Below are positions 39,183-60,555 of a stretch of DNA of 64,000 bases, piece after piece. The stretch's first letter is position 1; every line of letters starts with the position of its first letter. The position numbers and the translations under genes were made by a program. The DNA is from a virus (taxonomy: Duplodnaviria > Caudoviricetes). The DNA is taken from the IMG/VR virus record IMGVR_UViG_3300032050_000002. One strand, given 5' to 3'. The notes under the pieces were generated by a model, which had not been told where the DNA came from, ran no database searches, and worked only from the letters and a program-made list of their open reading frames with translations.

Positions 39183-39308
39183 AGTCAGGTGGCGGAATTG
39201 GTAGACGCTAGAGCTGGAGTTAGGTCACACGCATTTGGGTTCGAGTCCCGTTAGTTGGGCCAGCTAGGAGAGCCGTAGACCGTGTGGGTTCAAATCCCAC
39301 CCTGACTA
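39183..39308 (+). ncRNA. tRNA-scaffold RNA 2
   Basis: Same acceptor stem; Leu-like GCGGAATTGGTAGACGC D-arm; GTGGG-TTCAAAT-CCCAC. Confidence 0.8.
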
Positions 39309-52778: not shown

Positions 52779-53738
52779 ATGAACCTAAGACAAACAATAA
52801 AAAGAATACTAAAAGAAGAATCAGAATCCGTTAATTGTAAATGTGGATGGTCTTGGAAATTATCTGATGGAGGCGATGACCCATACGTTTGTCATAAATG
52901 TGGAAGAGATAATAGTAAATTAAATAAAGTTTATTATGGTTTTGCTAAATTACCCAATTATTGGGTTGACGATAACGATTTCTCATACAACGATGAATTT
53001 TTCGATGATAAAGACTATGATGACCACTATTTTGATAATTTTAAAGACATGGACAAAATGTTTGGACATAGAAAATCTTTATTCGGAACAAGAGGTTTAG
53101 ATGTTGGGGATGAAAAAAGAACTTCACGGTCATTTAATCAATATAACGAACGATATGGTCCTGCAATTGTTAGGGTTATCAAAGATAAAAAAGAAAAATT
53201 AAATGAAGTTAGAGTTCCAAGAAGTGAAAGGGTGGAATTATATAAGGATGATAATATAATTGTTGTTGTTCCATTAACTCATAGAGCATTACAAAAATAT
53301 GCTACAAATTGCCAATGGTGTATTAATGATGATTTAACAGATTGGGAGGAGTATCATAAAGGAAGACACGCAGTCATCATCCAAAGAAAGCCAAAGAAAA
53401 GTAAGAAAGGTATTACAGGGATGGAAACATATGGTGAGATTTTTATTTTATCAAGATTAGATGAAGGAATGTGGGATTGGAAAACTGCCATAGATATTTT
53501 AGGGTATGATTTTGGTGGTAGTAAAGAAAGGGCTTTAGACTATTATGTTAATATATCAAATGATATAAATAACTTTGCAACAAATATAGTTTATTATTCA
53601 CCTGAAAATGGAATATATGATATGGAAGATAACTTCTTATGGAATTTCGATATTGAGATAAACGACATACCAAATGTAACTCCAAAAGTTATAGAGATGA
53701 TGGATGACTATCTAACCAATTCTGAAGAGGATAATTAA
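52779..53738 (+). CDS. Modular leader-bearing protein (CxxC module plus WC-motif domain)
   Basis: MNLRQTIKRILKEE; CKCG..CHKCG; internal KLNE; QWCI. Confidence 0.75.
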   Translation: MNLRQTIKRILKEESESVNCKCGWSWKLSDGGDDPYVCHKCGRDNSKLNKVYYGFAKLPNYWVDDNDFSYNDEFFDDKDYDDHYFDNFKDMDKMFGHRKSLFGTRGLDVGDEKRTSRSFNQYNERYGPAIVRVIKDKKEKLNEVRVPRSERVELYKDDNIIVVVPLTHRALQKYATNCQWCINDDLTDWEEYHKGRHAVIIQRKPKKSKKGITGMETYGEIFILSRLDEGMWDWKTAIDILGYDFGGSKERALDYYVNISNDINNFATNIVYYSPENGIYDMEDNFLWNFDIEINDIPNVTPKVIEMMDDYLTNSEEDN

Positions 53739-54256
53739 TCTCGCCACTTACTTAATACCTCGTTTAACAAATATTGAGAAACGTTATTAGTCCCAATAAT
53801 ATCATTAACAACCAAATCATCTTTATGTTTTAAAACATTACCAACAAGTATTGGTTCATCATAATACCCCAAATTATTTTCGGTAACCTCGTCAACAGAC
53901 CTCTCCATATCAAAAGGAACACCATAAAAACTTCTAACTTTATAATTTAAAGACTCCTCCAAATTTTTAACTCTTTTCATATTCTTACTTATTTTAACAA
54001 CATCTGTATTAATAACTTCTTCAACCCAACTCATCAAGATTGGTTTAAAATCATCTTCAATTAATGAAAACATTTTAAAGAAAAAATGAAAATAATCATA
54101 TCTGTACCACAATGTTCCCCTTACAAACTGAAAATACCAAAATTTTTTCTCCCTATCAATAAACCAAATAGACTTATCGTAACAAATAATTTCAACCGTA
54201 CTTAAATTAAAGTATAATTCATCAAAGATAATTTTTTTTAATTTATCAGAAACCAC
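53735..54256 (-). CDS. MVSDKL-family protein with decayed C-terminal repeats
   Basis: Paralog of 59076-59732. Confidence 0.75.
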   Translation of the reverse strand: MVSDKLKKIIFDELYFNLSTVEIICYDKSIWFIDREKKFWYFQFVRGTLWYRYDYFHFFFKMFSLIEDDFKPILMSWVEEVINTDVVKISKNMKRVKNLEESLNYKVRSFYGVPFDMERSVDEVTENNLGYYDEPILVGNVLKHKDDLVVNDIIGTNNVSQYLLNEVLSKWRD

Positions 54257-54862: not shown

Positions 54863-55231
54863 TTAATTAAATTCATTTTTTGGAATAATAAACCTATGAC
54901 CATTAGTCCAATTAGTTCCTTTTAATACTAAATCAAACCCCAACTTATGACCAACCCAAGAAGTGATAAGTTCTACAGAATTATCATAACTCATTGAAAA
55001 AAAACCTGAAATCTCATCAATAAGATTATGATGAACAAACACCCAATCTCTTTCTTCACCAAAAGCGTTTTTTTTATAAACGGAAATAACCGAGTGGTCA
55101 TCATTTTCCGAATTTAAAAAGTAAATATAATTATTAAATTGTTTATTATTATCTTTAATAATAAAATCTTGGTTATCCAAATATTTATAAACCGCATTTT
55201 TAAATTTACTTTCTGTAATAACAAATTTCAT
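54863..55231 (-). CDS. MKFIITE-family small protein
   Basis: MKFVITESKF..YKYLDNQDF. Confidence 0.78.
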   Translation of the reverse strand: MKFVITESKFKNAVYKYLDNQDFIIKDNNKQFNNYIYFLNSENDDHSVISVYKKNAFGEERDWVFVHHNLIDEISGFFSMSYDNSVELITSWVGHKLGFDLVLKGTNWTNGHRFIIPKNEFN

Positions 55232-57150: not shown

Positions 57151-57489
57151 TTAAACCCAATTATCCGGCATTTTTAACAAAGTTGCTTCAAGACCAATCC
57201 AACTATTTGTATCAACGACTTTCACATTTAATTTATTCTCAACCCAACCAGCAATTACGTTTCTGGTAACAATATATTTTGATGAAAAGAAACCATCCAT
57301 CTCAACAATCAAATCAGAATTAATATAACACATTCCCGTACCATAATCATACATTATTTGAGCAATCTCATCATCTTCTGAATTGGCAAAGTAAGCTCCG
57401 TCATAAGTATGAATACGAATAAAATCTTGATTGTCCAAATACTTTTCCATCGCGGAAACTATTTTTGATTCGGTGATAATAAATTTCAT
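57151..57489 (-). CDS. MKFIITE-family small protein
   Basis: MKFIITESK..YLDNQDF..WVENKL. Confidence 0.78.
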   Translation of the reverse strand: MKFIITESKIVSAMEKYLDNQDFIRIHTYDGAYFANSEDDEIAQIMYDYGTGMCYINSDLIVEMDGFFSSKYIVTRNVIAGWVENKLNVKVVDTNSWIGLEATLLKMPDNWV

Positions 57490-57516: not shown

Positions 57517-57816
57517 TTAGAATGAAAATATGCCGTAACCAACAACAGGAACATTTAACTTATTTGACACCCATTTAGCAATAATATCACCGGCGGTTAC
57601 CTTCTCAATAGAGAAAAAATCAATTAATTCATCAACTAAGTCTTTTTTAAAATAACACATTTCACTTACATTTGAATAACCGATGAGTCCATCCACATCA
57701 TCCTCAGAATTTAAAAAACGAACTGTATTTTTATAACCCTTCACAATAAAGTCCTGATTATCCAAATACTTAAAGATAATGTTTTCCAATTTTGATTCGG
57801 TGATAATAAATTTCAT
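57517..57816 (-). CDS. MKFIITE-family small protein
   Basis: MKFIITESKL..YLDNQDF. Confidence 0.78.
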   Translation of the reverse strand: MKFIITESKLENIIFKYLDNQDFIVKGYKNTVRFLNSEDDVDGLIGYSNVSEMCYFKKDLVDELIDFFSIEKVTAGDIIAKWVSNKLNVPVVGYGIFSF

Positions 57817-57843
57817 AATCATAAATATACGATATTTATTAAT

Positions 57844-59075: not shown

Positions 59076-59732
59076 TTATTTTATTGTATGATTTAATACC
59101 TTGTCAACATAACTTTCTTCATCAATCATTTCGCCACCATCCATATTAGTTACCGTATGATTTAATATATCTTCCACCTCAGATTTAAATTGGTGAAGAT
59201 GGTCATTAGCAGTACCAGGAGTACATTTCAATATCTCTCCCATCCACTTATCCAAACTTGATGCGGTTTTATCAACCTTACAATTTAATACTTCTTCCAC
59301 CAATTCAGGAGCGTAATAAACACCACCATCTGTTGCATTAACCTTACAATTTAATACCTCTTCCACCTCTTCATTCATAAAAAAGACAACACGTACGGTT
59401 GTATTAACCTTACAATTTAATACCTCTTCCACCCGGTTATAAATGGTGATGGCACCAACAGCAGTTGTATTAACCTTACAATTTAATACCTCTTCCACCC
59501 AATCTTTTAAAATGGGCTCAAATCGAGCGGAGTCAAGAGAAAATAATAAGAAAAAATCATTAAAGAAACTATATCTCCACCACAATCTACCATCTTTTTG
59601 TAGTTCAAAATACCAGTACTTCTTTTGTCTGTCAATAAACCATATATTACCATTATAGTTGATAATCTCAGTCTTCCCAAGTTCTCTATATAGTTCATCA
59701 AAGACAATCTTTTTTAATTTATCTGAAATCAT
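59076..59732 (-). CDS. MISDKL-family protein with 22-aa constant/variable repeats
   Basis: (VEEVLNCKVNxT + 10 variable aa) x3-4; ATG 4 nt after TATCTTTG. Confidence 0.8.
   Translation of the reverse strand: MISDKLKKIVFDELYRELGKTEIINYNGNIWFIDRQKKYWYFELQKDGRLWWRYSFFNDFFLLFSLDSARFEPILKDWVEEVLNCKVNTTAVGAITIYNRVEEVLNCKVNTTVRVVFFMNEEVEEVLNCKVNATDGGVYYAPELVEEVLNCKVDKTASSLDKWMGEILKCTPGTANDHLHQFKSEVEDILNHTVTNMDGGEMIDEESYVDKVLNHTIK
59266..59499. repeat. CRISPR-like array: four 36-bp repeats, three 30-bp unrelated spacers
   Basis: GTTGTATTAACCTTACAATTTAATACCTCTTCCACC at 59464, 59398, 59332 (1 mismatch), 59266 (3 mismatches); internal GTATTAA/TTAATAC palindrome. Confidence 0.85.
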
Positions 59733-59769
59733 AATACAAAGATAATAATAAAAAATGGATTAGACAAAT

Positions 59770-59920
59770 TTAATTAGGTATTCTCAATTTATTAAAAATA
59801 AGTGGTCTTCTTACTTGTTGTGTCTAACACCTTGATTTGCGAGGTATTCCCGACAAAGGCTTAATCTTACCAAAACAAAATACTGCGTCTAACACCTTAA
59901 TTTGTAAGGTATTCTCAACC
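59770..59920. repeat. Decayed repeat-spacer array, periods 65 and 66 bp
   Basis: 59885-59920 vs 59820-59855 (29/36 identical); third partial copy AGGTATTCTCAA at 59776. Confidence 0.75.
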
Positions 59921-60165
59921 CACTTACCGATAAGGTTTTTAGAATCAAGATACTCTAAAGAAAAAAAAGAAGAAATTTCGTCCACCAAATCAACATTAAA
60001 ATAACACTTACCAACATTTTTATCGTATTTAATTTGAAAAAACTCATCTTCTATCGAATTAAAAAAATAAATATAAACCCCCTTTTCAACCTTAACAAAG
60101 TCCTGATTATCCAAGTACTTAAAGATTACTTGTTCCATTTTAGATTCGGTGATAATGAATTTCAT
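59824..60165 (-). CDS. MKFIITE-family small protein
   Basis: MKFIITESKM..YLDNQDF..WVENTLQIKV. Confidence 0.78.
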   Translation of the reverse strand: MKFIITESKMEQVIFKYLDNQDFVKVEKGVYIYFFNSIEDEFFQIKYDKNVGKCYFNVDLVDEISSFFSLEYLDSKNLIGKWVENTLQIKVLDAVFCFGKIKPLSGIPRKSRC

Positions 60166-60177
60166 ATAAGATAAATA

Positions 60178-60555
60178 TTAGTAGATGTGTTCATTATCAT
60201 AAAATGTCATTATTTCGTTAGTTTTAATATTCATATGTTTTTCAAACCATTTTAATAAATGACTTTGTATTTCTTCCCAAGTTTTCATGCTAAACAAATT
60301 AAATATATAACCGTAAAAATCATCGGCCAAATAAACTTCTGAATTGCCAAAAGCAATACGTGATTTAGAGCCCTTATATTCTTTATTTAAAGTTAATATA
60401 ATAATAACTTCATTATCGTTATCATCATACCAAACATCTCTATGATACAACCCATTAGGATTAGGAACTCTTTTATGTTTTAATCCCAAAAATAGTTCGC
60501 CAATAAAAGAATCAATTATATTATCTAATTTAGATTCGGTGATAATGAATTTCAT
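60178..60555 (-). CDS. ITE-leader small protein
   Basis: MKFIITESKL; LKWFE. Confidence 0.75.
   Translation of the reverse strand: MKFIITESKLDNIIDSFIGELFLGLKHKRVPNPNGLYHRDVWYDDNDNEVIIILTLNKEYKGSKSRIAFGNSEVYLADDFYGYIFNLFSMKTWEEIQSHLLKWFEKHMNIKTNEIMTFYDNEHIY

Follow-up and report, generated by a model that had tools for sequence, protein, structure and literature searches.

A CRISPR-like array of 36-nt repeats and 30-nt spacers read in frame in a freshwater phage gene family

The focal gene and its surroundings

The window analysed in the current study is a stretch of 64,000 nt taken from a 107 kb IMG/VR virus record (G000). IMG/VR tags this record as a provirus; a search of this record and four related ones found no tyrosine integrase, and a reading in terms of lysogeny or an integrase was rejected. 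The focal gene, P0001, is an ORF of 218 aa on the minus strand (nt 59076 – 59732), surrounded by small genes that mostly lack a known family. P0001 and its neighbors gave no match in Pfam, PHROGs, PADLOC or NCBIfam, and a Foldseek search with P0001 found no match in the PDB and only unnamed homologues in BFVD. The product is laid out as an N-terminal domain of about 78–85 aa, four clean 22-aa units and three decayed units. In the AlphaFold (AF2) model, residues 1–85 have pLDDT values of 82–88, with a helix at residues 68–83, against 28–40 for the array tail. This last helix of the domain runs on into repeat 1, the first repeat-encoded residues forming its end. The coding part of the folded domain (nt 59500 – 59732, minus strand), recognised from AF2 and pN/pS values, takes the part of a 'leader' to the array.

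TRF reports a 66-nt period at nt 59264 – 59499. A first-pass annotation of this DNA, made from the letters alone, had described four 36-nt repeats separated by three unrelated 30-nt spacers, in frame in a protein gene, and its positions and lengths were confirmed by TRF and by reading the minus strand, on which all of the following features lie. Each unit is translated as VEEVLNCKVNxT plus 10 variable residues. Repeat 1 (36 nt; nt 59464 – 59499) begins with a G that is the third base of a Trp codon. It is followed by spacer 1 (nt 59434 – 59463, 14 G+C), which was seen only in this lineage, and by repeat 2 (nt 59398 – 59433), which is identical to repeat 1. Spacer 2 (nt 59368 – 59397, 10 G+C) encodes VRVVFFMNEE and is common to many relatives. 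Repeat 3 (nt 59332 – 59367) shows one mismatch and repeat 4 (nt 59266 – 59301) three, with spacer 3 (nt 59302 – 59331, 12 G+C) between them. The rest of the gene (nt 59076 – 59265) comprises spacer 4 and the three decayed units, at steps of 57 and 69 nt that are multiples of 3, and then a truncated repeat and the stop codon; this tail is kept in relatives. As the annotation had noted, the mismatches of the 35-nt repeat cores to the first rise towards the 3' end of the gene (0, 0, 1, 3), with decayed units beyond (nt 59076 – 59235), and the spacers are richer in G+C than their surroundings (14, 10 and 12 of 30, against about 29% for the window). The 7-bp palindrome (GTATTAA/TTAATAC) that it placed within the repeat is real here, but belongs to the P0001 variant only, the family consensus folding differently and weakly; an RNA hairpin was for this reason rejected as a conserved feature. 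The pattern in P0001 is far beyond chance, the same architecture being found in 71 arrays from 47 contigs.

G000 carries four family genes in all: P0001, a paralogue at nt 53735 – 54256 (minus strand), and a tandem pair beyond the window. The paralogue has the same domain and a tail in which the 22-aa period survives at the protein level only, i.e. an old, decayed array. The tandem pair lies just past the window end (G000:C1:96761-97756, equal to L002:1269-2263); one member has three clean units of a VSTT repeat variant, and the other has decayed to a protein-level period. Smaller paralogues of about 100–125 aa form a swarm around P0001, all on the minus strand (nt 54863 – 55231, 57151 – 57489, 57517 – 57822, 59824 – 60165 and 60178 – 60555). 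They start with MKFIITESK and end in W-V-x-x-x-L-x-x-K-V, the motif from which the repeat would have arisen, and none could be assigned to a known family; array-less small paralogues near P0001 end in the similar W-V-E-x-x-L-x-x-K-V. Elsewhere in the window, nt 39183 – 39308 (plus strand) gave an Rfam tRNA match of 36 bits over 126 nt where ARAGORN calls none, and represents a tRNA-like unit with a large insert.

Family distribution and cassette turnover

A protein search recovered 1554 homologues of P0001, the lengths of which step by 22 aa. The family plan is a folded domain of about 85 aa followed by n units, each with 12 constant residues and 10 variable ones. Close relatives have near-identical domains and differing combinations of discrete 10-aa cassettes; P0003, for example, is P0001 without its first unit, that of spacer 1. 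At the DNA level, repeats were located without regard to ORFs in 46 related loci from viral and metagenome contigs, which yielded 360 repeats in 71 arrays on 47 contigs. Orthologous arrays are collinear, with whole cassettes gained, lost or replaced between related phages. The first-pass annotation had new units added next to the conserved core; strict growth at the leader end is not supported: the share of units held in common between relatives is 0.79 for the first, 0.85 for middle and 0.79 for the last units, and internal cassettes differ as often as domain-proximal ones.

The stretch is present in sequencing runs of at least 17 studies of lake metagenomes. Nineteen of the 20 runs that hold it are labelled as DNA, and one (0.04 of words) was merely guessed to be RNA. 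Logan contigs from four lake studies break within the array and join other spacers to the same repeat.

Translation and selection

No in-frame stop codon occurs in any of 268 units. A random 30-mer of the same composition stays open with a probability of 0.51, which gives 4e-40 for 136 units, and stops have a frequency of 3–7.5% in the other five frames. Between orthologues, pN/pS is 0.23 for shared spacers and 0.22 for the domain; shared spacers are under purifying selection, like ordinary coding sequence, once they are present. These data show the cassette tail to be a translated part of a freshwater phage gene that is kept open in one frame. The tail is probably a disordered, hypervariable peptide that serves as a display or decoy in the conflict between phage and host.

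Repeat boundaries and spacer composition

Boundary statistics were taken from 136 independent units. The conserved block consists of nt 66 plus nt 1–35 of the 66-nt unit, synonymous sites included, and corresponds to a 36-nt repeat (G + 35). Entropy rises abruptly at nt 35/36, from 0.34 to 1.93 bits, remains near 1.95 bits through nt 65 irrespective of codon position, and drops from 1.92 to 0.33 bits at nt 65/66. Both repeat/spacer boundaries are therefore sharp and out of codon phase, and the variable part is exactly 30 nt long. In the last spacer codon, where the residue allows a synonymous choice, the third base is G in 108 of 110 cases, compared to 182 of 805 inner codons. At the other border the fourfold site nt 33, in the Thr codon at nt 31–33, is A (i.e. 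ACA) in 134 of 136 units, and nt 36 is free. The spacing is equally regular, with 268 unit steps of 66 nt and every other step a multiple of 3.

Pairs of spacers show either 1–6 mismatches or fall in a bulk around the random expectation of 22.3 of 30, with none at 7–11. The pairs with 1–6 mismatches are variants of one spacer in different phages. Spacers that can be aligned with one another, or that do not vary among relatives, had been named in the first-pass annotation as the signs of ordinary tandem duplication and drift. Neither was seen: similar spacers within one array number zero in 497 pairs, and cassette sets vary. Mismatches to repeat 1 climb from 1.1 to 6.3 with distance from the domain. 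The synonymous rate between orthologues is 0.079 in repeats and 0.081 in spacers, and this equality indicates that the uniformity of the repeats reflects a recent common origin of the units rather than nucleotide constraint. Taken together, the boundaries, spacer pairs, repeat decay and rates exclude duplication followed by drift.

The composition of the spacers is distinctive. Their GC3 is 0.40, compared to 0.30 for the domain, which places them off the mutational equilibrium of the genome, and their residue composition correlates better with random-codon expectation (r = 0.85) than with the phage proteome (r = 0.64). The dinucleotide TA is depleted (0.60) and AA/TT enriched (1.24), more than stop avoidance explains, and CG and GC, depleted in the phage genome, are not depleted in spacers. 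The signature as a whole is closer to natural DNA than to random sequence. Random untemplated synthesis is disfavored, as stop avoidance alone gives 0.92 for TA and 1.03 for AA, compared to the observed 0.60 and 1.24.

A related DNA-level event is seen in the neighboring gene (nt 59824 – 60165, minus strand), the 3' end of which forms part of a duplicated end segment (nt 59755 – 59920, minus strand). A further copy of the 36-nt end of this gene, identical at 29 of 36 positions, follows at a distance of 65 nt, and a partial one at 131 nt; the copying is out of frame and extends past the stop codon, as expected from a process that is blind to reading frame. The plus strand of nt 59755 – 59920 reads as a type VI-B-like repeat with a 5-bp hairpin (CCTTA..TAAGG), and nt 59894 – 59914 (plus strand) matches the repeat profile R1, described below, with 16.2 bits. 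Similar antisense matches occur at the ends of W-V-A-D-T-L-Q paralogues in L003, L009 and L015.

The strongest rival to a DNA-level origin is an ordinary protein tandem repeat, in which 22-aa units multiply by unequal crossing-over, the linker diverges under diversifying selection, gene conversion homogenises the repeats, and the likeness to CRISPR is a coincidence. It agrees with an in-frame, translated array on which purifying selection acts, with a constant motif that prolongs a helix found in array-less paralogues, with decayed paralogues that retain the period at the protein level, and with internal exchange of cassettes, as recombination predicts. It is at odds with the lack of duplicated or intermediate spacers, with borders that fall off codon phase and fix a G in the third position of an otherwise variable codon, with the raised GC3 of spacers, and with the out-of-frame 36-nt duplication in the neighboring gene. 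On balance this explanation is considered unlikely, though it retains real weight.

Similarity to type VI-B CRISPR arrays

Type VI-B systems have 36-nt repeats with GUUG...CAAC ends, 30-nt spacers and 66-nt crRNAs, and their loci lack Cas1 and Cas2 (10.1101/092577). The phage arrays were compared with 120 bacterial VI-B-type arrays, nearly all from Bacteroidota and including the Bergeyella zoohelcum array that adjoins Cas13b; the Flavobacterium columnare repeat is printed in PMC5395568. The literature (10.1101/092577) bears out the earlier statement that a 36/30 geometry is typical of Bacteroidota VI-B, and the phage arrays agree with VI-B arrays in this geometry and in their sense orientation (10.1101/092577; PMC5395568).

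In the same register, which had been fixed independently from the entropy profile, the family repeat is identical to real VI-B repeats at 24–27 of 36 positions and differs at 10–14 of 36 (about 65–70% alike), with ends of the form G.TG... and ...GGTA...ACAAC. At the 24 positions not used for fetching, the family repeat scores 10.2, compared to 6.6 ± 1.25 for shuffled repeats and 12.5 for real repeats among themselves. Part of the resemblance is accounted for by the codons for W-V-E and T-T. Profile R1, built from 52 real VI-B repeats, detects in-frame family repeats with 14–19 bits (E 3e-4 to 0.05), in sense and in register, and gives only 7.6 bits on the repeat variant of P0001 itself. Across all 107 kb of G000 it matches only the two family arrays and the end of the neighboring gene. 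The phage repeat begins with GGUG; 9% of real repeats have a G at position 2. Pairing of the inner stem reaches 38% of cells for the phage versus 76%, with covariation, for real repeats, and that of the terminal stem 75% versus 97%. No Rfam CRISPR repeat family was found in the array, even at E ≤ 10, and an exact match to the family repeat occurs in none of 185,579 prokaryote genomes and nowhere in INPHARED. A comparison of leaders was uninformative, the bacterial flank ending in TAG and the phage flank in TG.

Canonical VI-B-type arrays of 3–10 repeats are carried by large IMG/VR phage contigs, and in L023 and L004/L209 an in-frame and a canonical array occur on the same related phage contigs. 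As a control, canonical phage arrays have spacers of 29–31 nt, compared to strictly 30 nt in the family, and the six canonical arrays with at least six repeats, as well as the four-repeat L209 array, contain stops in all six frames. The non-coding canonical arrays of L198, L199, L201, L202, L204 and L207 (IMG/VR, 73–335 kb) have 6–10 repeats and spacers of 29–31 nt. L023 is a 3 kb contig with two family genes, on which a 437-aa TnpB/Cas12f-like ORF (NF040570, 174 bits) is directly followed by a canonical mini-array, in which three full and two partial VI-B-type repeats of 36 nt are separated by four spacers of 30 nt (L023:144-400 and L023:559-1872, both on the minus strand), a pairing of a TnpB-family RNA-guided nuclease with a VI-B-like array. 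This TnpB/Cas12f-like gene has no homologue in G000 or the four related records (G001–G004).

Machinery and sources of spacers

The first-pass annotation reported no cas gene in the window, which holds, and holds also across the 107 kb record. Its proposed wider search for cas1/cas2 or other integrases likewise detected none in the five phage records G000–G004 (37–82% complete), and neither Cas13b nor a reverse transcriptase (RVT_1) was found in them.

The proposed search of the spacers against Bacteroidota and phage genomes was fruitless. The phage's own DNA, 594 kb of DNA from related phages, INPHARED and about 800 genomes of Bacteroidota (406 genomes plus 401 from the order with the repeats most like those of the L023 canonical array), databases which barely cover this habitat, yielded no protospacer; all matches were at chance level. 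In the reverse direction, the DNA of the family phages was matched by no spacer from bacterial VI-B arrays or from canonical phage arrays.

Origin of the array

The off-codon boundaries, unrelated spacers, absence of unit duplication, polar decay, and 36/30 geometry with a VI-B-related repeat favor a DNA-level process resembling spacer acquisition. We infer that CRISPR-type spacer integration at a repeat-like gene end, most likely by a host Cas1-Cas2, followed by selection for an open frame, built the array; this is our preferred explanation, to which we give a probability a little short of even. An ancestral C-terminal helix W-V-E-x-x-L-N-x-K-V, common to array-less paralogues, would have supplied the first repeat. 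At this gene end, a 30-bp fragment would be inserted by a Cas1-Cas2-like integrase, with the 36-bp repeat copied in the process, and each integration would lengthen the protein in frame by 12 constant and 10 new residues. As 36 + 30 = 66 bp, or 22 codons, each event would preserve the frame. Units with stops or of the wrong length would then be purged by selection, and recombination within repeats would reshuffle the cassettes.

The process has both to insert 30 new bp and to copy a 36-bp repeat, which favors Cas1-Cas2; we know of no other enzyme that duplicates a target of about 36 bp while inserting about 30 bp. The likeliest candidate is a host type II-C Cas1-Cas2, the machinery that serves type VI-B arrays in trans in Bacteroidota. 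In F. columnare, II-C Cas1 acts in trans to supply VI-B arrays with spacers from both phage and host DNA, although leaders and repeats are dissimilar (PMC8092290). New arrays can be seeded by off-target integration (Nivala et al. 2018, as cited in 10.1101/148544), and nearly all CRISPR systems of huge phages lack acquisition genes, some having host-like repeats and possibly using host Cas proteins (PMC7162821). The integration model is weakened by the failure to find a protospacer in the DNA searched, the lack of an integrase in five incomplete records, the departures of the repeat from VI-B repeats, including the missing inner stem and the low score of the P0001 variant, the part of the likeness that codons explain, and the internal cassette differences. 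Of the first-pass suggestion that a process like spacer acquisition diversifies a protein tail, then, the DNA-level signature stands, while neither a protospacer nor an integrase was found to go with it.

A cassette inserter that the phage encodes, or that is in some other way unrelated to Cas, could have built the arrays, with the 36/30 geometry arising by convergence or mimicry. The DNA-level insertion signature speaks for such an inserter, as do the failure to find cas genes in records of up to 82% completeness and the number of neighboring genes without a known family. Against it, we know of no enzyme but Cas1-Cas2 that combines such insertion with duplication, and the geometry and repeat ends match arrays of the probable host phylum, so that we regard a non-Cas inserter as quite unlikely.

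The array could also act at the RNA level, a host Cas13b cutting the mRNA into 66-nt crRNA-like species that act as decoys, in an anti-CRISPR role by mimicry, or as guides, and translation being secondary. Sense repeats, the geometry and the conserved repeat ends would suit this role. Canonical VI-B-type arrays unaccompanied by cas genes are found in related phages, phage mimicry of repeats is known (PMC10651486), and huge phages may rely on the Cas proteins of their hosts (PMC7162821). The inner VI-B stem is, however, absent from the in-frame repeat, no Rfam CRISPR repeat family is recognised, and an RNA-only role needs neither amino-acid purifying selection nor stop-free spacers. A primary role in RNA is accordingly judged improbable, and the earlier proposal of a mini-array or source of decoy guides is not supported, given the missing stem and the selection on the peptides.

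A diversity-generating retroelement (DGR) or other targeted hypermutation would account for hypervariable coding segments in a phage, but is effectively refuted, as the five records have no RVT_1, there is no template repeat, and the spacers share no common backbone.

Relation to known systems and significance

Like the VI-B arrays of B. zoohelcum and F. columnare, the phage array has a 36/30 geometry with repeat ends in register, unrelated spacers, decay away from the transcription start, sense reading from the 'leader' and strain-variable spacer sets. It differs from them in lying in frame in a gene without stops, with spacers of strictly 30 nt and purifying selection at the protein level, and in lacking the inner stem, a nearby cas gene and detectable protospacers. 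Neo-CRISPR arrays made by off-target Cas1-Cas2 activity (Nivala et al. 2018, as cited in 10.1101/148544) are similar in that a repeat-like site is duplicated around a spacer and starts an array away from any CRISPR locus, including inside genes; the arrays of the present family occur in phages, are widespread (>1500 genes) and long-lived, and are kept as coding sequence.

False CRISPRs, tandem repeats within protein genes such as SdrC, also show a repeat-spacer appearance in an ORF without companion cas genes, but are defined by a lack of spacer diversity (PMC5294841), whereas family spacers are random-like and units are never duplicated. Phage orphan or mini arrays and RNA anti-CRISPRs (PMC7162821, PMC10651486) have host-like repeats without adaptation genes, as do the canonical arrays of L023 and L209; these are non-coding, whereas the repeat described here is in frame and only about 65–70% like real repeats. 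A survey of RNA anti-CRISPRs (Racr), in which ORFs were masked, detected none of type VI (PMC10651486).

At the protein level, P0001 is reminiscent of another kind of gene. Multi-core RiPP precursors of the cyanobactin PatE type have a conserved leader and repeated constant recognition segments that flank hypervariable peptide cores. P0001 differs from these in having no maturation enzymes nearby and off-codon boundaries, and in being a phage gene. A literature search found no published account of a comparable diversification by CRISPR-like translated cassettes.

Spacer integration may in these phages amount to a programmed generator of protein diversity, in which cassettes that bind or distract host defences are kept and the mRNA possibly also acts as a Cas13b decoy; we put this forward as possible, though doubtful. 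Such a generator would add to DGRs and cassette recombination a third way in which microbes target hypervariability to proteins. The family is a natural library of random 10-mers with constant flanks, and pipelines that mask ORFs or discard 'false CRISPRs' within genes are blind to its more than 1500 proteins. If integrases of the host or the phage can write random in-frame cassettes into a phage protein, phage genomes are themselves substrates of spacer integration, and CRISPR adaptation would gain a second evolutionary use, the diversification of proteins rather than the storage of immune memory.
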